Source of the DNA: a bacterium
Lineage (GTDB): Bacteria > Patescibacteriota > Saccharimonadia > CAILAD01 > GCA-016700035
Direction: 5' to 3'
Length of the DNA stretch: 64,000 bases
NCBI GenBank assembly: GCA_020854115.1
Contig: JADZGC010000011.1
Span: forward strand, 5,057 to 69,056
Shown: positions 31-55,495 of the stretch, piece after piece
Layout of the letters: every line of letters begins with the position of its first letter
Position numbering within the stretch: the stretch's first letter is position 1
Notes under the pieces: model-generated
The model's database searches: none
Seen by the model: the letters and a program-made list of their open reading frames with translations, nothing else
Told to the model about the DNA's origin: nothing
Program-made: the position numbers and the translations under genes

Positions 31-576
31 GTGCGAATCATGACCTATTTTGTCATTGCTGTTGCGATGTTGGTAGCGACAAACTGGAAGAATATAATAA
101 ATGCAATTAATCAGAATGTAGTTGATAGTCAGCCGTTTTTGCAGTCTCTGCCAAATTACATTTCTGCCTATACAGACAATCAAATTGTGTCGTGGCTAAC
201 GATTGTGCTGTTTTGGGGTACGATTGGGCTTGCGGCATATACAGTTTTTTGGCTTGGCATGGCATTTTTCACCGCCGCTCGCAACGAACTCATCGTGGAG
301 ACAGCTTTTTCTAATCGAGGACATTTTTGGGAAAAAATACGGGTGCCACTTATTAAGCTCGTGATGCTCATCGCAACTGCGGTAGCGATTATCTTGACGA
401 TGCGCTACGGCATACCGGTATGGAATGATCTTTTTGCCTCTGGCTTATACCATATAGGCTCTGGATCAATGATTGCATTCGTACAATTCGCTATTGCGAT
501 ATTTGGTGCAATGGCCAACTCACATCTTATTATCACGACGGTACTCATATTTCGTCATGCAGACGGCATTTTATAA
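31..576 (+). CDS. hypothetical integral membrane protein
   Basis: 181-aa ORF with several hydrophobic helices. GTG at 31 or ATG at 40. No recognisable family. Confidence 0.5.
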   Translation: MRIMTYFVIAVAMLVATNWKNIINAINQNVVDSQPFLQSLPNYISAYTDNQIVSWLTIVLFWGTIGLAAYTVFWLGMAFFTAARNELIVETAFSNRGHFWEKIRVPLIKLVMLIATAVAIILTMRYGIPVWNDLFASGLYHIGSGSMIAFVQFAIAIFGAMANSHLIITTVLIFRHADGIL

Positions 577-602
577 GTTTACTCAGCCGATAAGAGACTA
601 GT

Positions 603-746
603 CTAGGTACCTCGAACTACGGTGGCCAGCGCTACGAGGATTGCGGCAAAAACCAGAAGTACGAGGATGAATAGGGCGAAGCTGCATCCAGGTGCTTTCA
701 CATTACTCGCGGTGTCGAGCGGTTTATTTGAGTAGATGAATGTCAT
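603..746 (-). CDS. 47-aa small hydrophobic protein directly downstream of lexA, same strand
   Basis: Hand-translated (below the 60-aa cutoff of the ORF track): MTFIYSNKPLDTASNVKAPGCSFALFILVLLVFAAILVALATVVRGT. Has a C-terminal transmembrane helix. Lies 11 nt after the lexA stop. No clear SD. Confidence 0.3.
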   Translation of the reverse strand: MTFIYSNKPLDTASNVKAPGCSFALFILVLLVFAAILVALATVVRGT

Positions 747-757
747 CTTGGGTGAGA

Positions 758-1384
758 TTAATACTTGCGGATTAGGCCGATCACAACACCCTGAATCTGC
801 AATCCCATATCTGGCGTAACATAAATTGGCTCCATAGCATCGTTTGCTGGCTGCAAGCGTACGCGTCCAGCTTCTTTGTAATAGCGTTTGAGCGTTGCTT
901 CCTGTCCATCGATCAGGGCGACAACTACTTCACCGTTTGATGGGATTTCTTTTTCTTGAACTACAACGTAATCACCGGAGTGAATGCCATCATTAATCAT
1001 CGAATTGCCTTTGACCTGCAGGACGTAGCTACTGCGCTTGCCAACCATAACTGGTGGGACTTCGAGAGTCTCTGGGTGACCGGAAATAGTCTCGATCGGG
1101 CTTCCGGCCGCAATCAAACCCATGATCGGGAGACGGACAGCTTTTTCGTCAAAGACGGCGGATTCAACTTCGCTGACTGGCATGAGCGAGCGAGCAGAGT
1201 TGTTGCCCTTAGTGAGGAGCCCTTTTGCTACCAGGGAATCGATGTGCTGTGCTACGGTGGCGACAGAATTGAGCTTCAAGCCATTGGCAATTTCGCGATA
1301 GCTTGGGGAATATCCGTGCTGCTCAATGAATGATGAAACGTAATCAAGTGTACGCTTTTGCTTCTTTGTCAGTGGCTTCTTCAT
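758..1384 (-). CDS. lexA: LexA repressor (S24 peptidase family)
   Basis: N-terminal winged HTH. C-terminal S24 domain with the Ser in the GNSM motif and the Lys in LKRYY. Confidence 0.9.
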   Translation of the reverse strand: MKKPLTKKQKRTLDYVSSFIEQHGYSPSYREIANGLKLNSVATVAQHIDSLVAKGLLTKGNNSARSLMPVSEVESAVFDEKAVRLPIMGLIAAGSPIETISGHPETLEVPPVMVGKRSSYVLQVKGNSMINDGIHSGDYVVVQEKEIPSNGEVVVALIDGQEATLKRYYKEAGRVRLQPANDAMEPIYVTPDMGLQIQGVVIGLIRKY

Positions 1385-1410
1385 AATTAGATTGCACCCT
1401 CCAAAAAATT

Positions 1411-1450
1411 ATGTTCGCCTTTTATAATATCGAACGCGAAGCGAACAGTC
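1411..1450. promoter_or_regulatory. candidate LexA operator overlapping a divergent promoter
   Basis: GTTCG at 1413-1417, TATAAT at 1423-1428, CGAAC at 1431-1435 and a second CGAAC at 1442-1446. Sits between divergent lexA and the 1497 gene. Resembles the CGAAC/GTTCG half-sites of Gram-positive SOS boxes but with atypical spacing. Confidence 0.35.
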
Positions 1451-1496
1451 AAGCTTGTTTTTGTAGTTTCTTTGGGCGTAGGATAGGGTAAGATCT

Positions 1497-2748: not shown

Positions 2749-2955
2749 ATGGCACATTATCAGCACACTAACTCAAAAGGTCAGACCTACATCCTGCACC
2801 AGCGCGACGTAACCCTCAAGGGTGGCCGCCAGCAGCGCATTTACTTCTTCGCTCGCGAAGCTAAGGACGGTGCTATTGACGCATTGCCAGAGGGCTACAT
2901 GGTTGTAGAAAACACTCGCACCGGCCTTCCGATTCTCAAGAAATCTGACAAGTAA
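2749..2955 (+). CDS. small hypothetical protein (68 aa)
   Basis: AAAGGAG RBS at 2731-2737 and ATG at 2749. Followed by an intrinsic terminator. Confidence 0.5.
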   Translation: MAHYQHTNSKGQTYILHQRDVTLKGGRQQRIYFFAREAKDGAIDALPEGYMVVENTRTGLPILKKSDK

Positions 2956-2978
2956 GCTGATACAGACATACAATTGCA

Positions 2979-3008
2979 AAGCCCGCTTCAAAAAAGAGCG
3001 GGTTTTTG
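2979..3008 (+). terminator. rho-independent terminator
   Basis: GC stem GCCCGCTT / AAGCGGGC-like followed by TTTTT. Confidence 0.6.
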
Positions 3009-3101
3009 CATGGCGAACGATCTGGCGCGAGAATTGTATCTTCTGGCTATATCTGAGATACTAAAGTGGTATTAGATGAAATATAAAGGAGAAGGTGAAT
3101 T

Positions 3102-3275
3102 ATGGAAGAAACTACAACCCCGGCAGCACAGCCAGGAGACGTAACTGCTCCAGCAGCTGACGCTCCAGCTCCAGTGGCTCCAGAAGCTCCAGCAACTGAT
3201 CCAGCTCCAGCTGTAGAAGGTGCTCCAGCTGAAGCAGCTCCCGAAGCCCCAGCTGAAGAAGCTCCTGCCGCTTAA
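3102..3275 (+). CDS. small acidic Pro/Ala-rich protein (57 aa)
   Basis: Not in the ORF track (below 60 aa). AAAGGAGAAGG RBS then ATG at 3102. Translates to MEETTTPAAQPGDVTAPAADAPAPVAPEAPATDPAPAVEGAPAEAAPEAPAEEAPAA. Terminator follows. The overlapping 3072..3698 minus ORF is judged spurious. Confidence 0.45.
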   Translation: MEETTTPAAQPGDVTAPAADAPAPVAPEAPATDPAPAVEGAPAEAAPEAPAEEAPAA

Positions 3276-3297
3276 GTATTTAAGCGCAGTAAAACTA

Positions 3298-3340
3298 AGA
3301 AACGCGACAAGCATCAGGCCTGTCGCGTTTCTTAGTTTTA
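3298..3340 (+). terminator. rho-independent terminator
   Basis: AAACGCGACA ... TGTCGCGTTT stem followed by a T-rich tract. Confidence 0.55.
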
Positions 3341-3476: not shown

Positions 3477-4376
3477 ATGATGGGCTTTAATCCTAGTGAT
3501 ATACGGATTGTTGTGCACGGAAGTTTCCGTCAGCATTTTGACCAAATTCTCGAGACGATCGAAGTTTTTGAGAGCGCGGGGTTTACTGTGCTTGCACCCG
3601 AAGCTCGAGAGATAATCTCTATGACCGATGGCTTCGCAGTGCTCGATGGTGAACGTGACATGGATCCGCGGCATATCGAAGCACGTTATTTGCAGCACCT
3701 CAAGCGATTGGGGGGTCTAGGGTTTAGCTATTTTGTCGATCCTCGTGGGTATATTGGGCGTACAACATCATTCGAGCTTGGTATCGCACAGCTGATTGGT
3801 GTTCGATGCTTTTTCTTAGAACACCCAGCCGATCATCCTGCATTTTATTCTCATGAGTCTGTCATGGGCCCACACGCTTTGCGAGACTACATCTTCGAGC
3901 ATGAGTCGTTGCCTGCGCCGAACATACAGCCAAATGAGCGGTTTATTCATGCTTTGTGGCAGCGACTTGTGGTGCCAGGCTCAGTTGTGGCTGGCGGTGC
4001 GATCATCCACCACGGGCCTTCTGATGAATATCTTTTCGTGAAAACGCACAAGTGGGGAGGACGTTACTCGATTGTAGGAGAGAAGGTACAGCGTGGAGAG
4101 CGGCTCGATGAGGCGATTCTGCGCGGCATAAAAGAAGAGACGGGATTGCAAGCTAAGCTCGGTCGTCACATTGTGACATTCGATCAAATCAAGCAGTCCG
4201 GATTTCACAAGGCTGGCGTAAATCATATCTTTGCCGACTATATAGTCGAGGTGAACTCGCAGCGGGTAGTGCTAGATGATGAGGCCGAGGACTATGTCTG
4301 GGCGCGACGCGAGGATGCGCTGAGTTCGCTTGATCTTGAGCCAAATGCCAAGCATACATTACTTCTTGCTGAATAA
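3477..4376 (+). CDS. Nudix hydrolase fused to an N-terminal nucleoside 2-deoxyribosyltransferase-like domain
   Basis: C-terminal Nudix box GEKVQRGERLDEAILRGIKEETGL. The N-terminal approx. 150 aa resemble an NDT-like Rossmann fold by eye. ATGATG start at 3477 chosen over the 3408 extension. Confidence 0.7.
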   Translation: MMGFNPSDIRIVVHGSFRQHFDQILETIEVFESAGFTVLAPEAREIISMTDGFAVLDGERDMDPRHIEARYLQHLKRLGGLGFSYFVDPRGYIGRTTSFELGIAQLIGVRCFFLEHPADHPAFYSHESVMGPHALRDYIFEHESLPAPNIQPNERFIHALWQRLVVPGSVVAGGAIIHHGPSDEYLFVKTHKWGGRYSIVGEKVQRGERLDEAILRGIKEETGLQAKLGRHIVTFDQIKQSGFHKAGVNHIFADYIVEVNSQRVVLDDEAEDYVWARREDALSSLDLEPNAKHTLLLAE

Positions 4377-4378
4377 AA

Positions 4379-4454
4379 TGGTGGGCCCGGTTGGGTTCGA
4401 ACCAACGACCAATCGGTTATGAGCCGACTGCTCTAACCCCTGAGCTACGGGCCC
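4379..4454 (-). tRNA. tRNA with anticodon CAT (probably tRNA-Ile2, lysidine type; otherwise elongator Met)
   Basis: Reverse complement folds as a cloverleaf: GGGCCCG acceptor stem, CTCATAA anticodon loop, TTCGAAC T-loop, CCA end. Variable loop and anticodon stem resemble Ile2-type. Confidence 0.8.
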
Positions 4455-4670
4455 TGATATAAAAAATCCATTCGGTACAAAAATGTTCGTAGCTCAATAA
4501 TAAGGGTTAGGGCAGGAATTTATAAGTCCATCTTGCGGCGAACAACCCCTTAAACCACGAGCCTGCATAAAACGAACCTACTTTATTATAGATCAAAATC
4601 GATTTTGTATCCCGCTTATACCGCCATAACACTAGTCATAATTTATCAAACACGCGTATACTAATTTGGT

Positions 4671-15888: not shown

Positions 15889-15951
15889 CCACTCATTCTA
15901 ATAGAATAAATACACCCTTTAGTGAGGTGTAGTTTGGTATATACTAATAGC

Positions 15952-18363
15952 ATGAGTAAGATAACAAAGCAGGCGCTCATTTTCTTTTGTTTCGTGAATG
16001 CTGTGCTTTTTATCTTTACACACCTCCCGCTCAATAAAGCTCGAGCTGTCGGTACGACACTGACAGTCAGCTCAATCAATGATGGCGACGATGCGAATGC
16101 TGGCGACGGCATCTGTGAGACGTCTACGCCGGGCGAATGCACCTTGCGGGCCGCTATTACTGAGTCAAATGCTAATACGGGCACCGATACGATTGAATTC
16201 AACATTTCGGGCGGCGGCGTGAAAACAATAGGTCTTACAGATGAATTACCCGCAATCACTGAGCAGATAGTGATCGATGGATATACACAGACTGGAGCAA
16301 GTGAGAATACTGCACAGGCGCCTTTGGCGATTAATAGTGTTATTACTATCGCAATTAATGGGAGTACACTTGGCCAGAACAAACTTGGTCTTCGGGTGGG
16401 TGGTGCGAATTCTGTCATTAAGGGCCTTTCGATATCGGGCTTTGATGCAAGTGATGGTCAGCATGGTAATTTACTGATATCGGCAAACAATGTGCAGATC
16501 AAGGGCTGCTACATCGGTGCCGATGCTAGTGGAAATGCATATGGTGCTGGTGATAACAAGGCTGGTATCGGGGTCGTAAATGCTACGGGTGTAGAAATCG
16601 GTGGGATTAATCCAGCCGATAGAAATGTTGTGATCAATAACCACCAAGACTACTCTGCTACAGCGGCAGGCATCATGGTATTACCAGGCTCAGAAGCAAT
16701 AATACAAGGGAATATTGTAGGCCTTGGAAAAGATGGTAGTACTGATTTGGGCGGGTATTATGGAATCATACTTCTCGGAAGTAACAGCCAGATTGGCGGG
16801 TCAAGTAATGGGGAGCAGAATATTGTTTCAGGAGCTCATTCTGCTCAAATCTTGCTCATTAGCTCAGGAACCGTTTCTGGCAATGTGGTGCAAGGAAATT
16901 ATGTAGGTCCTGGAGCAGGGGGTGAAATCAAGCCTAGCATAGATAGTGGCGCAGGCATTGCCTTGGTTGGGGCTGGTGGATCACTAGTCGATAATCTAAT
17001 TGGTGGAGACAACCAAGGTGAGGGGAATACGATACGAGCCGTAAAGGGGATAGGTATTGCAGTACAGGAGATGAATGATCCGGCTCCAAATAAAAACGCA
17101 ATTCTAGGAAACTCTATTTATGACATTAAGGTTAATGAATACTTTAGCGATTTTACGTCTATCAACCAAGGTATTGATCTGTTTAGGCTAACAAGTGTCA
17201 ATCCATATTCATTCTCGGCCCAAGGGGTTACAGGTAATGACATTAATGACACAGACACAGGGGCTAACGACTACATTAACTCGCCCACGCTTCGCACCGC
17301 TCAGCAGGTTAATAACACAATTACTATCACGCTCGATTTAGATGCTAGTGATAGCCCGTCAAATAGTTATCGTATCGAGTTCTTTGCTAACGATGAGGCA
17401 TCTGTTTTTGGCGCTGGACCGGGACAAGAATTTATTGGTAGCCAAGTCATAAGCCCTGGCAGCAATCAGCCAGTTGTATTGAATGTGTCTGGTAATTATA
17501 GCTTCAAGTCACTATCGGCTACTACGACAGCGATTGATAATACCACGAGCACTGGATTCGGCTCTACATCCGAATTCGCGAGAAATATTTCCATAGGTAG
17601 TGCGGAGGATACTGATGCTGATGGAATTATTAATAGTGTCGAAGATGCTGCACCAAATAGCGGCGACACGAATGACGATTCGATTGCAGATCGCTTGCAG
17701 CCAGCCATAACAGCCTTTAAGTCGGGCGACGACAGCACCTGGCAAACAGTGATGACATCTGGTTGTAGCGAAAATAGCTCCGTTTCTTCACTGGGGCCAA
17801 ACGCCTTTCCTAAGCAAGATGCAAACCATAACTATCCCTTTGGCCTGACTGATTTCACTTTGCGCTGTTCGAAGGGTGATACTGCAAATGTGACAATCTA
17901 TTATTTTACTGATCAGGGTGTTGACTCACTCCATCCACGCAAGCTCTTGACCGGTACTGAAGAGTACGTTGATTTGCCAAATGCTACCTTGCAGCAGGCG
18001 CAACTCGGTGGTCAAAATGTCCTGAAGCTCACATATAGTATCCAGGACGGCAGTGCGTTTGATGATGATGGAGGGCTCAATGGGCTAATTCATGATCCAG
18101 TTGGTCTGGCTACCAATAATGCAAACGCTACCTTGCCAACCGTTGGCGCACCCCACGTCCTCTTGCCGGTCGGCTTAGCGATACTCGTGACCTTGATCTA
18201 TGCCTACTACGACTACATGCGTCACAAGAAACCGCTAGTCGCAGAAAACCCACACATTCACTATACTTTCTGGCATCATCTGCGCGTCGTAACGCTACCA
18301 ATTATGAAATATCGGTTTTCGATCGTGGTAGAACGACGAGACTCGGCGCCGATAGCTAGCTAG
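15952..18363 (+). CDS. large surface protein with right-handed parallel beta-helix repeats and C-terminal TM anchor
   Basis: Signal peptide. Many GxNxVxGN beta-helix repeats. Asp-rich calcium-binding-like segment. Hydrophobic anchor VLLPVGLAILVTLIY near the C-terminus. ATG 15952 preferred. Confidence 0.7.
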   Translation: MSKITKQALIFFCFVNAVLFIFTHLPLNKARAVGTTLTVSSINDGDDANAGDGICETSTPGECTLRAAITESNANTGTDTIEFNISGGGVKTIGLTDELPAITEQIVIDGYTQTGASENTAQAPLAINSVITIAINGSTLGQNKLGLRVGGANSVIKGLSISGFDASDGQHGNLLISANNVQIKGCYIGADASGNAYGAGDNKAGIGVVNATGVEIGGINPADRNVVINNHQDYSATAAGIMVLPGSEAIIQGNIVGLGKDGSTDLGGYYGIILLGSNSQIGGSSNGEQNIVSGAHSAQILLISSGTVSGNVVQGNYVGPGAGGEIKPSIDSGAGIALVGAGGSLVDNLIGGDNQGEGNTIRAVKGIGIAVQEMNDPAPNKNAILGNSIYDIKVNEYFSDFTSINQGIDLFRLTSVNPYSFSAQGVTGNDINDTDTGANDYINSPTLRTAQQVNNTITITLDLDASDSPSNSYRIEFFANDEASVFGAGPGQEFIGSQVISPGSNQPVVLNVSGNYSFKSLSATTTAIDNTTSTGFGSTSEFARNISIGSAEDTDADGIINSVEDAAPNSGDTNDDSIADRLQPAITAFKSGDDSTWQTVMTSGCSENSSVSSLGPNAFPKQDANHNYPFGLTDFTLRCSKGDTANVTIYYFTDQGVDSLHPRKLLTGTEEYVDLPNATLQQAQLGGQNVLKLTYSIQDGSAFDDDGGLNGLIHDPVGLATNNANATLPTVGAPHVLLPVGLAILVTLIYAYYDYMRHKKPLVAENPHIHYTFWHHLRVVTLPIMKYRFSIVVERRDSAPIAS

Positions 18364-36488: not shown

Positions 36489-37799
36489 ATGCCTACGACC
36501 AAGACCGAACCCGTCTGGAAAGACGCGGAATACGCGACGATCGCTAAACGGACGAATCGCAGCTTGATTGCTGCCTTCAGGCCGAGTAAAGAGAGTGAAG
36601 CTGAACAGCGCGGCTTGTTCCTGGCTGGTGAACGGCCAGTACCGAATTTTTCGTGTCCCAAGCTGGAATCAACTGCCTATAAGCCTACGACCGATGAACT
36701 TGAGTCGTTATTGGCCGACTGGAAGGACGATTCGCCGCTAGGACGTATCTACCAGCGATTCTTGGGCGAGAACTTTCTCGTCAATGTCATCGCTGATGCG
36801 GCCAAGAAGGGCGACATGCGACTTTTTCGTCGAACCAATCAGATGCTGGGCTACGTGCCGGATGGGAAGCTATTCCGCTCGATCGTGGCTGACATTCGTC
36901 GACGTGCTGAAGCCACTCTCGATGACACAGCAATTCGTCCCCTCGCAAATGCGCTCCTCGATACTCTGCCGAACGCAAGTGAAGCAGACATCTTGTTGCC
37001 ATCGGAGGAGCACGTGCGTGCTGCTTTCCCTGCTATGCTGGCATTGTGTGAGTCCCTCCATCTCCCTACGGACGTCGACTTCGATGCGGTGTGGGATGCA
37101 TATGAGCTAGCTCGGGTACTGCAGGCATCACTCGATACAGCAGGCGCCACTGGGTGGTCGGTCATAGTGACCGATGAGCAGCAACGCATCTCGGTTTCGC
37201 GTACTGACAAGCTAGCGAAGATCCCCGTCACGCGAAAGCTGCATGGTCGAGATGCTTATGCTGTCATCGCGCACGAGCGTTTGCATATCGAGCGCGGCCT
37301 GCGTGGTGCTGCGAGCGGTTACTACTTCCTGCAGTCAGGAACAGCTGGTTACATCGAAGGCGAGGAAGGGACAACTCTCGCTCTAGAGCAGGCTCTCAAG
37401 GGACGAGCCAACCGCCATGCGCGTGAGGACTACTACCTCGCGATCGCGGCTGCCAATGGATTCGTCACGAATGGCTTCATGACTTTCGAGCAGGTCCATC
37501 GGCTGATGCGCACGTATTACGAGTTCGTTGCCGAGGAGCCGGATCGTGAGCGAGAGTCTACGGAGAGTCCCGAAGAAATGGCTTGGATTCAGACTCTACG
37601 TACGTTCCGTGGTACGGATTGTAAGGGCAATGGCGCCTACTACGGCAAAGATATCGTCTATGCCAAGGGTAATCTTGGTATCTGGCAGCTGCTCATCGAG
37701 GATCCTTCAGCGGCGCAGACCTTCATGGTCGGGAAGTTCAACCCAATGAATCCGGACGATGTTCGGGATCTGACCGAGCTCGGACTTATCGCGACCTAG
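36489..37799 (+). CDS. DUF1704-like zincin (HExxH) protein, putative carboxypeptidase
   Basis: HERLH motif. Family resemblance to the tyrosine/phenylalanine carboxypeptidase-type DUF1704 proteins that neighbour RimK-like ligases. Slightly elevated GC by eye. Confidence 0.6.
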   Translation: MPTTKTEPVWKDAEYATIAKRTNRSLIAAFRPSKESEAEQRGLFLAGERPVPNFSCPKLESTAYKPTTDELESLLADWKDDSPLGRIYQRFLGENFLVNVIADAAKKGDMRLFRRTNQMLGYVPDGKLFRSIVADIRRRAEATLDDTAIRPLANALLDTLPNASEADILLPSEEHVRAAFPAMLALCESLHLPTDVDFDAVWDAYELARVLQASLDTAGATGWSVIVTDEQQRISVSRTDKLAKIPVTRKLHGRDAYAVIAHERLHIERGLRGAASGYYFLQSGTAGYIEGEEGTTLALEQALKGRANRHAREDYYLAIAAANGFVTNGFMTFEQVHRLMRTYYEFVAEEPDRERESTESPEEMAWIQTLRTFRGTDCKGNGAYYGKDIVYAKGNLGIWQLLIEDPSAAQTFMVGKFNPMNPDDVRDLTELGLIAT

Positions 37800-43497: not shown

Positions 43498-44352
43498 TTG
43501 ACTCTGCTCATACAGTGCTTATGCTTGAAGTTTGACTTAAAAATCGGGATAACCAGGACGTCCTATCCGCACCTCCTACCCCGAAGGTAGTCCATGGATG
43601 TTCTGCCTACCCTGATTGTCCCCCAAGAACCACTCCACGAGCAGCGTGGCTGGGTCGAAATGACCTATCGACGACACAAGCGTAGACTCAAGCATCTGTC
43701 GGTTACCAGATACCGCATCGACTGTTGTGTGTAGCGGGCGAACGCATTGATCCTGGATCGGTGTGTCTCTACATCGGTAGTAGAGAGATTTTCTGTATCA
43801 ATCAGGATTTTGTTCGCAAAGTTTCGCCGCTTCCAGAGGCTTGCTGCCCGTCTGGGCGCACGAACTAGAAAGGGATTAAGCATGCTTGAATCGCCATGGC
43901 CAGACCTCACAAGAGAGGAGATCGTAGCTCAGTTTGAGGCTATCTCACGCTTGCGGAGCACCAAGAAATTCTCGACTTCGAACTCGACGGCGAGGATACG
44001 CTTGGAGCAGTCTGTGCTACTCTGGTTGATAAGGGGCTTGACTGTGATGTCATCCTTGAACAAGTCGGCGCTCACGTCGTAATTCCGCGCCTAAGCCAAT
44101 AAGGAGATCTAATGGTTGCGCCGCCTGCAGAGATCAAGCGCAAGTTACGGCGATATATCGATGCAGAGGATTTTGGGATCGCTGTCGGGGAGATGGGGAT
44201 CCAGAAGAGACCCTAGCTATGGCATATGAATATCTGGCAGATAGCGGCTACGGTGCTGAGATAGTCTTGCGAGAGGTTGGTCTTTGGACAGAAACTTTGC
44301 GCCTTTCCGAATGGGTAGGGCGTTTTTAATTGAAACGAGTATACTTAGGGGC

Positions 44353-44811
44353 ATGGTTATTATTGGTATCGATCCCGGCACGGCGACGACGGGTTTCGGC
44401 GTGATAGAAGTTGATGGACACACGCGTCGCGCGATTGATTATGGAGTGATTTCGACTGACAAGTCTCTCGAACACGCCAAGCGTCTGCAGATTTTGTACC
44501 GGGACTTACAGCATTTACTGAACAAGCACGCACCGAGTATCGCCGGGGTAGAGAAACTGTATTTTTCGACCAATGTGACGACGGCCATGAAGGTCGGTGA
44601 GGCACGCGGTGTGGTGCTGCTTGCCTTACAACAGGCAGGTGTATTAGTGCATGAGTTTACGCCATTGCAAATTAAGCAGGCTACCACGGGTTATGGTCGG
44701 GCAAAGAAGCCGCAGATGCAGCAGATGGTACAACGCCTTCTGGGGCTCGATGCAATACCGAAGCCCGATGATGCTGCTGACGCACTAGCTATAGCCCTAG
44801 CTGCAGCATAA
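44353..44811 (+). CDS. ruvC: crossover junction endodeoxyribonuclease RuvC
   Basis: IIGIDPGTATTGFGVI N-terminus, catalytic Asp/Glu, C-terminal ...DDAADALAIAL. Confidence 0.9.
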   Translation: MVIIGIDPGTATTGFGVIEVDGHTRRAIDYGVISTDKSLEHAKRLQILYRDLQHLLNKHAPSIAGVEKLYFSTNVTTAMKVGEARGVVLLALQQAGVLVHEFTPLQIKQATTGYGRAKKPQMQQMVQRLLGLDAIPKPDDAADALAIALAAA

Positions 44812-44815
44812 AAAA

Positions 44816-44841
44816 CCACGTTAATTGATGTATCAACGTGG
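44816..44841 (-). terminator. hairpin terminator (U-tract on the minus strand)
   Basis: CCACGTT-N12-AACGTGG flanked by AAAAA on the plus strand, i.e. TTTTT on the minus strand. Confidence 0.4.
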
Positions 44842-44988
44842 CTAAAGAAGAATTGGGCGCGATTTTTTAGTAGCGTCTAAGCAAGTAGGCCTCGCGTAGT
44901 CGTTGAGGTCGCTTGAGAATTCGCTCGAGGAGCTGCCGGTGTGCCTGCTCGGTGCACTTGCTGGTGTGTGCTGAGTTGGAGATCAGTA

Positions 44989-45255
44989 TCATGAGACATT
45001 AGACAGGTTGGCTGTCGAATGGGTCGTCCGTCTCTGTCGGCGAATCCATCGCCGTTCTTGTTCGCTCATGCCGCCCCATATACCGGATCTCTCACCAGAT
45101 GAGAGGGCAAACTCCAGGCAATCCTTGCGAACGGCGCAACCTCGACAGATACTCTTGGCTTCCGCGGTGCTGGCACCTCGTTCTGGAAAGAACAGGTCTG
45201 GGTCGGTGCCAGAACAGTTACTAGCCAGTCTCCAGCTATCTTTTATTACAGTCAT
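44989..45255 (-). CDS. WhiB-like (Wbl) Fe-S cluster transcription factor
   Basis: Four Cys in C-x(n)-C-x2-C-x5-C arrangement (NCSG ... CRGCAVRKDC), the GIWGG turn and a basic tail (RRWIRRQRR). Confidence 0.8.
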   Translation of the reverse strand: MTVIKDSWRLASNCSGTDPDLFFPERGASTAEAKSICRGCAVRKDCLEFALSSGERSGIWGGMSEQERRWIRRQRRTTHSTANLSNVS

Positions 45256-45371
45256 ACATGCTCCCTAGGTACAGCGGGTTAAATCGCCAATGGGCTTATA
45301 TGTAGATTACCTAAAAAATACAGGTGAGACAAGACTGCCGTTTATGTAAAACGTTCGGTATAATAGAAGGG

Positions 45372-45935
45372 ATGTTAGCTTTGCTACAGGGTGAGGTGGT
45401 TTTGCGAGAGGGCGACGAGATCGTGCTCATGGTTGGTGGTGTGGGCTATGAAGTGAGCGTACCGATGCGGGTCTTGAGTGATCTTGTTGAGGGTGAGGTG
45501 GTGACGCTTTATATTGCTGAGAACATCCGAGAGGATGCATATGAGCTCTTTGGGTATACGACAGCAGAAGATAAGCGTTTGCATAAAAAACTCGTGGGGG
45601 TACAGGGCGTGGGCGCTAAACTTGCGCACGCTATACTTTCACATTATGACGCTGAAACTTTGCGCGAGCTGATTGAAGGCGAGGATCTGGTGCGGCTTGG
45701 GATGGTGAGCGGGGTTGGGAAGAAAACTGCTCAACGCATTCTCCTCGACCTTAGGGGTAAGCTCGTCACTACAACGACGAGTACATCGCGTGCTGAAGCG
45801 AACGATCCAGCACTCTTGGCACTCTTGCAGCTCGGATTCTTGCGCGAGCAGGCTGAGCAGGCACTGCTGGAAGTTGATAGTGAATTAGAGACAGGCGAGA
45901 GGATACGACAGGCCTTGAAAGGAATGGGGCGATGA
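45372..45935 (+). CDS. ruvA: Holliday junction branch migration protein RuvA
   Basis: OB-fold N-terminus ([10 protein letters not shown]), two HhH motifs ([17 protein letters not shown]), C-terminal RuvB-interacting domain. ATG 45372 preferred. Confidence 0.9.
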
Positions 45936-47005
45936 TCGAACGGCTGCACGAAAAAGACGAGGCCGTACTGCGTGACGTTCGACCTGATGTTGGTGATGTC
46001 GAAGAAAAACGTCTTGAGGAGACATTGAGACCTCGGAGCTTCGATCAATATGTTGGTCAGCGACAAGCTATCGATGCGCTCAAGGTAGCGATTGCGGCAG
46101 CAAAGCAACGAGGCGAGGCGCTCGATCACGTACTGTTGTATGGGCCCCCAGGACTCGGGAAGACCACCCTGGCGCACATTGTGGCAAATGAAATGGGTGC
46201 ACAGCTCAAAGTTACCTCAGGGCCAGCCATCGAGCGTGCTGGAGATCTGGCAAGCCTGCTGACGAATCTAAATGCCGGTGACATATTGTTTATTGACGAA
46301 ATTCACCGGCTTGGTCGGACGGTCGAAGAGATTCTGTATCCAGCAATGGAAGACTTCGCGATCGATATTATGCTTGGCAAAGGTCCGGCTGCTCAATCGT
46401 TGCGCCTTGACCTGCCCCGCATCACGATTATTGGTGCGACTACACGATATGGGACTTTGTCGAGCCCATTGCGTGATCGATTTGGCATTGTGCACCGGCT
46501 GGAATTCTATACACCGGTCGAAGTCGCTCAGATCCTGCGGCGCTCGTCCGATCTCTTACGTGTTCAGATACAAGACGATGCACTGGCGGTACTGGCAGAA
46601 CGTTCACGATTAACTCCGCGTATAGCGAACCGACTCATCAAGCGGGTGCGGGATTACGCAGAAGTGCACAATCGCGGTGTGGTGGATAGTGCGATGCTTG
46701 AAGCAGCCTTAAGCCTATTGGAGATCGATGAGCTCGGCCTTGATAGCTCTGACCGACGACTTTTGATCACATTGATCGAATACTATGATGGTGGACCAGC
46801 GGGCGTAGCAGCTCTGGCTGCAGCCCTGTCTGAGGAGCAGCAGACTATCGAAGATGTCATAGAACCATATCTCATTCAGATCGGGCTCTTGAAGCGGACG
46901 ACGCGGGGGAGAATGGCGAGCGAACGCGCTTGGCAGCATGTTGGCAAGACTCCAAAGTCGCCTCCAAAATCTTCTTCACAGGCCTCGCTCAATCTGGAAG
47001 AATAG
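45932..47005 (+). CDS. ruvB: Holliday junction branch migration ATPase RuvB
   Basis: AAA+ Walker [12 protein letters not shown], Walker [11 protein letters not shown], winged-helix C-terminus. ATGA overlap with ruvA. Confidence 0.95.
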
Positions 47006-54187: not shown

Positions 54188-55495
54188 GTGCCTATGAAGC
54201 GAGTAGTGGCCGTATGGAATATAGGTATTGTTGGATTGTTGAGTTTTATGCCACTTCAATCATTCGCCGTCGGGAGTCCGTCGCTGGTGATTCGTGAGGT
54301 TTATCTGGGTAGCCCAATCGATGCGACCGATGAATACGTGGTGATCCACAATAATAGCAATGATGTGGTTGATTTGCAGGGTGTGGAGTTAGAGTATAAG
54401 TCGGCGACTGGGAAGAGCTGGACTCGTAAGGCGTTCGTTGCCGATCCACTGTCCCTGTCTGGTCATAGCGACGCACTGTTTGCGACCAAGCGCGACCGTC
54501 AAGTTGCAATGAGCGATGGGTTAGCTCAGGCTGGTGGAAATCTGCATGTTACTGTGAATGGAGCAGTAATCGACCGGCTGGCTTGGGGTACTGGCGATAG
54601 TCCCGAGGGTGTATCCATCTCGGCACCAAAAGCTGGCATTGCCCTGGAGAGGGAGTGCTCGGATGATGATGGGGTCTGTGTTGACTCGGATAATAATAGT
54701 CAAGATTTTTCCGAAAAGTTAGTGGATGCATCTGCTTCTCAGGGGAATGTTCCGGTAAATAACCCTACTGGCACAGGTCAGCCTGGCAAAGGCAGTGTTG
54801 ATAGTGTGGTTATCGAAGATTATGCGATTGAAATCACGGAGCTATTGCCGGATCCAACAAGCCCACAGACTGATGCAAAGGACGAATTTATCGAGATATA
54901 CAACGCTGGATCAGGCACTGCCACATTGACAGGATGGAAGTTGTCGGATGGGAAACACTCTTTTTCACTTGACAGTGTGAACCTAGGCGCCGGTGAGTAT
55001 CGTGCATTGTATTCGCGCGATACGAAACTATCACTCAACAATGATGGCGATCAGATTTTGCTTTTGCGACCAAGCGGCGAGACGGAATTTATAACGCCGA
55101 ATTATGGTAAGGCGAAGACTGCCACGTCGTTTGGTGCGACCGAAACTGGCTGGGGATGGCTAGAGAGCGCAAGTCCAGGTAGTGTGAACGCGGGGTTAAG
55201 TCTTGACCAGAGCCCGAGTAAGGCGAAAACAAGCACGAGCAGCAAGTCTAAGGGAGGTGTTAAGAAGTCATCTGCCAAATCGGCAAGTGCAGCAAAGACC
55301 GGTAAGCTGGCAGATGGAGGTGTTCAGTCCGAGACGAATTCAGATGCTTCGGCTGAAGATCGACCAGGTGTCCCATGGTCATGGATACTAGCCGGATTGG
55401 GTTCTCTTACGGTAGGATATGGTGCATATGAATACAGACCAGAAATTCTTAGTTTCTTCACAAAGCTCCGAGCAAAGCTTGGCGCTGGGAAGTAA
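54188..55495 (+). CDS. secreted protein with two lamin-tail domains (LTD), Ser/Lys-rich tail and C-terminal TM anchor
   Basis: Signal peptide. Two LTD-like repeats (LVIREVYLGSPIDATDEYVVIHNNS...DLQGV ; VVIEDYAIEITELLPDPTSP...EFIEIYNAG...LTGWKLSDG). Confidence 0.7.
   Translation: MPMKRVVAVWNIGIVGLLSFMPLQSFAVGSPSLVIREVYLGSPIDATDEYVVIHNNSNDVVDLQGVELEYKSATGKSWTRKAFVADPLSLSGHSDALFATKRDRQVAMSDGLAQAGGNLHVTVNGAVIDRLAWGTGDSPEGVSISAPKAGIALERECSDDDGVCVDSDNNSQDFSEKLVDASASQGNVPVNNPTGTGQPGKGSVDSVVIEDYAIEITELLPDPTSPQTDAKDEFIEIYNAGSGTATLTGWKLSDGKHSFSLDSVNLGAGEYRALYSRDTKLSLNNDGDQILLLRPSGETEFITPNYGKAKTATSFGATETGWGWLESASPGSVNAGLSLDQSPSKAKTSTSSKSKGGVKKSSAKSASAAKTGKLADGGVQSETNSDASAEDRPGVPWSWILAGLGSLTVGYGAYEYRPEILSFFTKLRAKLGAGK

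Follow-up and report, generated by a model that had tools for sequence, protein, structure and literature searches.

WhiB-like (Wbl) proteins are prevalent throughout the Actinobacteria, with several paralogues per genome (PMC6282962). Their established properties include an O2/NO-labile [4Fe-4S] cluster, binding to region 4 of the sigma factor and contact of a basic tail with DNA (PMC6282962, PMC13013590), and a G[V/I]WGG β-turn following the last cysteine is a hallmark of the family (PMC6282962). WhiB1 of Mycobacterium tuberculosis (class I; PDB 5OAY, 6ONO) is the paradigm for binding to sigma A region 4, which is mediated by its aromatic patch (W3, F17, F18, and W60), and WhiB of Streptomyces venezuelae (PDB 8DY7, 8DY9) is a class II protein whose structure was solved in complex with WhiA (PMC13013590). 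WhiB proteins of actinophages provide the precedent for Wbl genes leaving actinobacterial chromosomes (PMC8612146, PMC13013590). The literature up to 2026 still states, in line with the original prediction made for the DNA analyzed here, that Wbls are exclusive to the Actinobacteria and their phages (PMC6282962, PMC13013590).

The stretch of DNA under study (64,000 nucleotides; hereafter the window) carries a whiB-like gene that lies between ruvC and ruvA and is read from the opposite strand. We consider it likely that this gene encodes a functional class II Wbl that a Saccharibacterial ancestor obtained from an Acidimicrobiia/Microthrixaceae-like actinobacterium and that has been inherited vertically since. 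What is new is the phylum, the fixed locus between ruvC and ruvA, and the long-term selection outside the Actinobacteria; the molecule itself is a canonical class II Wbl, and the mechanism is not new. A full-text literature search found no paper discussing WhiB or WhiA in Saccharibacteria or Patescibacteria; NCBI automatic annotation already labels such genes in Saccharibacteria MAGs as WhiB.

The whiB product is a Wbl protein assigned to class II

The 88-residue product of the gene (MTVIKDSWRLASNCSGTDPDLFFPERGASTAEAKSICRGCAVRKDCLEFALSSGERSGIWGGMSEQERRWIRRQRRTTHSTANLSNVS; Table 1) contains four cysteines, Cys14, Cys37, Cys40, and Cys46, which by direct reading of the sequence are spaced C-x22-C-x2-C-x5-C, followed by the turn G58-I-W-G-G62 and by a basic tail in which residues 68–76 read R68 R69 W I R72 R73 Q R75 R76. 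The Pfam Whib family (PF02467) matches the protein with 86.4 bits (E = 1.9e-24; gathering cut-off 23.6) over profile positions 1–63 of 65, and NCBIfam holds no model that matches it. The full signature attributed to this 88-residue protein in the original prediction (cysteine tetrad, GIWGG turn, and Arg-rich tail) is present, and the gene is confirmed as a genuine member of the Wbl family. When 40 sequences were aligned, C14, C40, and C46 were invariant and C37 nearly so. With the aromatic-patch positions (AP1–4) defined as in PMC13013590, W8, F22, F23, and W60 of the window Wbl correspond to W3, F17, F18, and W60 of WhiB1, and all of them, like the GIWGG turn, are invariant or nearly so in the same alignment. 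The cysteine pattern was found once in a six-frame translation of the window, with no second Wbl or paralogue.

The protein of known structure most similar to the window Wbl is S. venezuelae WhiB (8DY7/8DY9 chain H; 8dy7_H), with a score of 83.7 bits, ahead of WhiB1 (66.7), WhiB4 (48.6), WhiB3 (44.4), WhiB7 (39.3), and WhiB6 (20.1). The alignment to S. venezuelae WhiB is free of gaps over residues 7–74, including the FFPE(K/R)G-ST-EAK loop. WhiB1, in contrast, which has the fold family and the aromatic patch in common with the window Wbl, can be aligned only with a five-residue gap in the loop after FFP. On the basis of the PDB ranking, the gap-free loop, and the aromatic patch, we assign the window Wbl to the class II (WhiB/WhiB2/WhcD) type. 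An AlphaFold2 model computed from the 40-sequence alignment was of low confidence (pLDDT 57), and a Foldseek search of the PDB with this model returned nothing meaningful; both results were dropped, and the class assignment rests on sequence.

The window Wbl resembles the class II proteins WhiB, WhiB2, and WhcD (Streptomyces, M. tuberculosis, and Corynebacterium glutamicum) in its cysteine tetrad, loop, GIWGG turn, aromatic patch, Arg-rich tail, and comparably small size. It differs from them in that its carrier is a Saccharibacterium and not an actinobacterium, in that only about 53% of its core is identical to S. venezuelae WhiB, and in its genomic position, since the ruvC/ruvA context was not seen at actinobacterial whiB loci.

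Table 1 Features of the whiB locus and lexA, in window coordinates.
Feature	Position	Strand	Basis
lexA	758..1384	−	
ruvC	44311..44811	+	Pfam RuvC, 162 bits; gene calls on identical contigs
Intrinsic-terminator-like hairpin (12-bp stem, then UUUUUUA)	44814..44843	−	Terminator scan; RNA fold
whiB-like gene, assigned to class II (WhiB/WhiB2/WhcD) type	44989..45255	−	ORF with ATG start, 88 aa
Shine-Dalgarno-like AGGGAG, 5 nt upstream of the whiB ATG	45261..45266	−	Direct reading
Conserved block TATATGTAGATTAC (plus-strand letters) with −10-like TATAAG/CATATA for whiB; putative promoter	45295..45310	−	7-lineage alignment
Conserved non-coding block ACAAGACTGCCG(T/C); candidate operator	45329..45341	+	7-lineage whiB–ruvA intergenic alignment
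TATAAT, predicted −10 box for ruvA	45359..45364	+	7-lineage alignment
ruvA	45372..45935	+	Pfam RuvA_N, HHH_5, RuvA_C; gene calls
ruvB	45932..47005	+	Pfam RuvB_N, AAA_lid_4, RuvB_C

The host is a Saccharibacterium

The whiB gene lies tail-to-tail (convergent) with ruvC and head-to-head (divergent) with ruvA, from which it is separated by a 116-bp spacer, and its placement on the opposite strand between these two genes, as originally read, is confirmed by the Pfam matches of the flanks. The start of ruvC is that of the gene call and may lie further downstream, at MVIIGIDPG. We used ruvB both to identify the host and to sample synteny. The closest named relatives of the window RuvB, at 65–73% identity, belong to Ca. 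Saccharibacteria (73%), the Patescibacteria group (72%), and Ca. Saccharimonadales (67%). This shows that the host is a Saccharibacterium (Patescibacteria/CPR) and agrees with the earlier view that it is not actinobacterial. Saccharibacteria are tiny CPR bacteria, and those in culture are obligate epibionts of Actinobacteria. The other genes of the window, which encode ComEC, YebC, a bPH_2 protein, a pilin, PilM/N/O, type II secretion E/F ATPase and platform proteins, and RNase Y, together with a compact hrcA-grpE-dnaK-dnaJ set, likewise fit a Saccharibacterial placement and not an actinobacterium.

The described range of the Wbl family, Actinobacteria and actinophages only, does not include such a host. 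Taxonomic range describes distribution and is not a molecular criterion, so that the finding extends the range of the family and does not exclude the protein from membership.

That the locus is an assembly chimera or a mis-binned actinobacterial fragment, for which only the unusual taxonomy speaks, has virtually no chance of being correct, because at least six independent assemblies yielded the identical protein in the same context. The same junctions are also found in syntenic relatives, and GC is about 0.50 throughout, continuous across whiB and its flanks with no step at the gene.

Several other stretches of the window were recorded in passing. From yebC to ruvC, an interval of about 800 bp (43498–44310) has no ORFs except small ones that match no family, and it may have decayed or be evolving fast; relatives have pyrF/pyrE-type genes or small hypothetical genes at this interval. 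An 813-residue ORF without a Pfam match occupies 15922–18363 (+), a 436-residue protein with a MATCAP-like (tyrosine carboxypeptidase) C-terminus is encoded at 36489–37799 (+) adjoining a RimK ATP-grasp ligase, and a Lamin-tail-domain protein is encoded at 54188–55495 (+) next to the type IV pilus ATPase.

The ruvC/whiB/ruvA arrangement is shared by one Saccharibacterial lineage

RuvB relatives were sampled at decreasing identity to the window RuvB and their gene neighborhoods were read. The layout ruvC / whiB(−) / ruvA-ruvB was found in 8/8 relatives examined with RuvB 72–87% identical to that of the window. Between ruvC and ruvA, L087 (RuvB 86%), L088 (84%), L089 (79%), and L238 (72%) each carry a Whib gene on the opposite strand. 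In L090 (82%), the Wbl lies between the same genes on the minus strand at about 2940–3240, where the gene caller had missed it and called a spurious 128-residue ORF on the wrong strand. Two tandem Whib copies occupy the position in L091 (77%) and a degenerate Whib gene does so in L092 (76%); the copy between ruvC and ruvA in L093 (73%) is NCBI MFO0955344.1, already named ‘WhiB family transcriptional regulator [Candidatus Saccharibacteria bacterium]’. The interruption is therefore not peculiar to one organism, as had been supposed; Wbl genes are common at this position across the relatives examined, a distribution that the original prediction had itself set against its reading.

Further away, at 64–67% RuvB identity, ruvB is found apart from ruvA and ruvC (L094, L236, and L237), and because of this detachment the whiB position is unscorable there. 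The ruvCAB cluster is not universal even inside the class Saccharimonadia, and its earlier description as an otherwise universal arrangement was overstated, given these more distant Saccharimonadales. The context of ruvB in L094 and L237 is tilS-ftsH-x-ruvB-bPH, and in L236 ruvB comes after divergent IMPDH/GMP-synthase genes.

As a negative control, 79 other metagenomic ruvA loci, mostly with distant RuvA (33–42% identity) as the search pattern was universal, were inspected, and none had a Wbl within 2.5 kb. Conversely, no ruv genes were found within 6 kb at the actinobacterial whiB loci examined. A functional tie of whiB to the adjacent recombination genes is not supported. The synteny in all eight relatives, the 79 ruvA loci devoid of Wbl, and the actinobacterial whiB loci devoid of ruv genes therefore identify the ruvC/whiB/ruvA arrangement as a shared derived trait of one Saccharibacterial lineage.

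The copies in this lineage are not equally well preserved. The turn of the L090 protein reads GGIAGG, with the Trp lost, and the L092 protein (1665–2030 (−)) has no G-x-W-G-G and scores 27.7 bits while retaining the four cysteines; constraint is therefore not uniform across the lineage. The tandem genes of L091 are located at 2558–2893 (−) and 3042–3323 (−). The ruvC-proximal copy has a GC3 of 0.79 in a locus with a GC of 0.51, and could represent a later second acquisition or be subject to different constraints.

Nearest sequences point to an actinobacterial donor

We searched a set of 5.8 billion proteins and the GTDB species representatives. The sequences that came closest to the window Wbl without being identical were WhiBs of Acidimicrobiales, Microthrixaceae, and Iamiaceae, with about 70–77% core identity. 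Another shared trait of the Acidimicrobiia/Microthrixaceae proteins (for example, L055 from Acidimicrobiales STL-ACT4 and L003 from Microthrixaceae, both within this range) is the RRQRALARAA-type tail, whereas their loci differ from the window in having unrelated neighbor genes and a GC3 of 0.83 versus 0.52. The cores of L087 and L088 are 94% and 90% identical, respectively, to L055. In a neighbor-joining tree of the 70-residue core, for which bootstrap support was weak, all Saccharibacterial copies except that of L092 fell in or next to an Acidimicrobiia-type class II group, with S. venezuelae WhiB outside it. When the divergent Saccharibacterial Wbls were combined into a profile and run against the 5.8-billion-protein set, the matches were swamped by Actinobacteria.

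Because of the nesting in the tree and the prevalence of Wbls in Actinobacteria, the direction of transfer is taken to be from Actinobacteria to Saccharibacteria. Mainly from synteny, we infer a single acquisition in the Saccharibacterial lineage, and the sequence comparisons point to a donor that was probably an actinobacterium resembling Acidimicrobiia/Microthrixaceae.

Actinobacteriophage WhiBs belong to the same Pfam family, but the best matches on viral contigs are only 55–64% identical to the window Wbl, lower than those in cellular Actinobacteria, and no phage genes were found around whiB in the window. Gene flow from actinobacteria or actinophages had been proposed originally; the actinobacterial origin stands, with Acidimicrobiia/Microthrixaceae class II WhiBs as the nearest sequences, and no link to phages was found. 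The top viral hit (L095), the sole viral contig inspected in detail, is high-GC and actinophage-like. Its WhiB gene has a RuvC-like resolvase gene at a distance of about 1.6 kb (2500–2742 and 4364–4564); given the nature of the contig, this proximity was treated as coincidence and not as a link to the window.

A further copy in a Ca. Saccharibacteria MAG (L001) is equally close to the window Wbl (71%) and has a different context, adjoining leuS. On contig CAYUUV010000037, its Wbl domain (residues 301–362) ends an uninterrupted 383-codon ORF (79–1230 (+)), and Pfam matches nothing in the 300 N-terminal residues; the ORF could correspond to a long Wbl with several domains or could have been over-extended.

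The gene is ameliorated and under purifying selection

The GC3 of whiB is 0.517, compared with 0.49–0.54 for yebC, ruvC, ruvA, and ruvB and 0.83 for L055, and that of the L087 and L088 genes is 0.55 and 0.50, respectively. Between Saccharibacterial lineages and against L055, synonymous differences are saturated (pS 0.72–0.85), and nonsynonymous differences in the same comparisons are far lower (pN 0.18–0.33). The window Wbl is 72% identical to that of L087, 67% to that of L088, 58% to that of L089, and 33–48% to the others. Rates have been uneven, as the L087 protein, at 72% to the window Wbl, is 94% identical to an actinobacterial Wbl. The ameliorated composition and the synonymous saturation indicate that the transfer is old, and the retention of 94% and 90% core identity to L055 by L087 and L088 despite their lowered GC3 indicates that strong purifying selection has acted over a long residence. 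The whiB gene is thus shown to be ameliorated and under purifying selection in the Saccharibacterial lineage.

These data bear directly on the original reading, in which the gene was transferred recently, and to this organism alone, from an actinobacterial host or an actinophage. Such a transfer would agree with the actinobacterial identity of the nearest sequences (70–77% in the core), with the life of cultivated Saccharibacteria on Actinobacteria (PMC10633639), and with the carriage of WhiB genes by actinophages (PMC8612146). It is nevertheless very improbable, since the same gene occupies the same position in all eight relatives down to 72% RuvB identity, its GC3 equals that of its neighbors and is far from that of donors, synonymous sites are saturated relative to relatives and Actinobacteria alike, and the best viral matches are only 55–64% identical, with the contig of the top hit high-GC and actinophage-like. 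The comparison of composition thus turned out against a recent arrival.

Genomes reduced to this extent rarely keep useless genes across comparable divergence. This counts against the view that the window gene is a decaying relic without function, which we regard as highly improbable even though the L092 and L090 copies are degenerate and the window copy evolves faster than that of L087: the ORF is intact, none of the defining residues is missing, pN remains far lower than pS, and a Shine-Dalgarno-like sequence, a terminator-like hairpin, and a conserved upstream block all accompany the gene (Table 1).

Proposed function

We return to the likely reading of an inherited, functional class II Wbl. 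In the proposed history, the ancestor would have acquired a WhiB2/WhiB-type gene from an Acidimicrobiia/Microthrixaceae-like actinobacterium, and the gene would have inserted between ruvC and ruvA in the opposite orientation and passed vertically from then on. By homology, the four cysteines would bind a [4Fe-4S] cluster, the aromatic patch formed by W8, F22, F23, and W60 would dock on region 4 of the primary sigma factor, and the Arg-rich C-terminal tail would touch the DNA immediately upstream of −35, so that promoter use would hinge on the intactness of an O2/NO-sensitive cluster. The [4Fe-4S] cofactor and the binding to sigma region 4 are thus attributed to the window Wbl by analogy with its characterized relatives, and cell-division genes would by the same analogy be the likeliest targets, as for class II WhiB2/WhiB. 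The His-Pro motif, which serves as the anchor for Wbl binding to sigma region 4, is widespread among primary sigma factors.

Our scan of window ORFs turned up no WhiA, and the primary sigma factor of the host is likewise not encoded in the window. For the cultivated Saccharibacterium Southlakia epibionticum, the gene tables have no entries for WhiB or WhiA, and the part of the TM7x paper supplement considered here has a WhiB entry for the host only and none for the epibiont; on the absence of an epibiont WhiA from these tables, WhiA may be missing from Saccharibacteria.

Mycobacteriophage WhiB proteins are reported to interfere with host sigma A/WhiA and division. By comparison, the epibiont might deliver its WhiB2-like protein as a mimic that disturbs sigma A/WhiA and cell division in its host. 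The striking retention of an actinobacterial-type core (up to 94%, in L087) and the attachment of cultivated relatives to Actinobacteria would suit such a role. We give it very little credence, however, as the 88-residue protein has no signal peptide or secretion-associated domain (Pfam finds Whib only), an oxygen-labile Fe-S protein is poor secretion cargo, no dedicated secretion genes are adjacent, and the divergent copies in relatives drift from the actinobacterial consensus.

For the reading that we prefer, a more far-reaching form is possible but doubtful: a WhiB2-type regulator obtained from an actinobacterial host lineage, fixed and selected lineage-wide within the transcription machinery and working with a non-actinobacterial sigma factor, possibly without WhiA, might couple the cell cycle or DNA repair (given the conserved divergent promoter region between whiB and ruvAB) to an O2/NO-responsive Fe-S switch. 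If this were true, the Wbl-sigma mechanism would be portable across phyla, the epibiont would employ the same O2/NO-sensitive Fe-S switch as its hosts, and whiB would mark past associations between Saccharibacteria and Acidimicrobiia. The locus corrects the stated range of the Wbl family, and it allows one to ask in a natural setting whether Wbl action through sigma region 4 works when the sigma factor is non-actinobacterial and WhiA is absent. As an old host-to-epibiont transfer, it would also point to Acidimicrobiia/Microthrix-like past partners of environmental Saccharibacteria.

Transcription units and the whiB–ruvA spacer

The whiB gene is predicted to be its own transcription unit, with a Shine-Dalgarno sequence, a −10-like box, and a terminator, divergent from a ruvAB promoter (Table 1). 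The terminator-like hairpin lies 145 nt past the whiB stop and has a folding energy of −15.5 kcal/mol (z = −3.2 versus shuffles). On the plus strand the hairpin directly follows ruvC and is without a U tract, so that read-through from ruvC antisense to whiB is conceivable.

About 45 nt of non-coding DNA in the spacer between whiB and ruvA are conserved despite saturated synonymous sites nearby, and this conservation indicates a functional cis-element. On the whiB side, the alignment of seven lineages suggests a putative whiB promoter in the TATATGTAGATTAC block. The ACAAGACTGCCG block lies at about −43 to −31 from the ruvA start, between the two divergent promoters, and its 13-nt consensus is matched with zero or one mismatch in 5/7 lineages, the block being absent from L091 and L093; we regard it as a candidate operator. 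The conserved intergenic motif ACAAGACTGCCGC was not enriched elsewhere in the window (28 matches with up to three mismatches versus 19 ± 4 expected).

On the ruvA side, TATAAT stands 7 nt upstream of the ATG and is present in six of the seven lineages, with TATACT in L089. A default sigma-70 scan did not call this −10 box, which is without a −35 match. Its position suggests that ruvAB is probably expressed as a leaderless transcript separate from ruvC. Within the same interval (45359–45374, from the TATAAT to the ruvA ATG), the AAGG just ahead of the ATG is too close to it for a Shine-Dalgarno role.

The anatomy of the spacer raises the question of whether the Wbl has been rewired as a local regulator of the divergent ruvAB genes (DNA repair/recombination) and of itself, and not of cell division. 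The divergent layout is kept across the lineage, the 45-nt block that includes the ruvA −10 box and the region at about −40 is conserved amid synonymous saturation, and at the ruvA promoter the −10 is perfect and no −35 is recognizable, as is often the case at activator-dependent promoters. Adjacency can equally be plain inherited synteny, L091 and L093 are without the conserved block yet carry Wbls, and the block could be an operator for LexA or another protein, as lexA is present in the window and CGTTCG is common to both promoters. We know of no Wbl that acts on ruv genes, and consider this reading unlikely.

CGTTCG abuts the −10 box in the lexA and ruvA promoters, and CGTTCGG directly precedes the ruvA TATAAT in the window (45350–45364), L087, L088, and L090. 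The hexamer may be a shared SOS-type operator half-site, which makes an SOS operator a plausible alternative to a Wbl-dependent site. The region upstream of lexA (1385–1470, minus strand) reads TTGACT-GTTCGCTTCGCGTTCGA-TATTAT...CGAAC.
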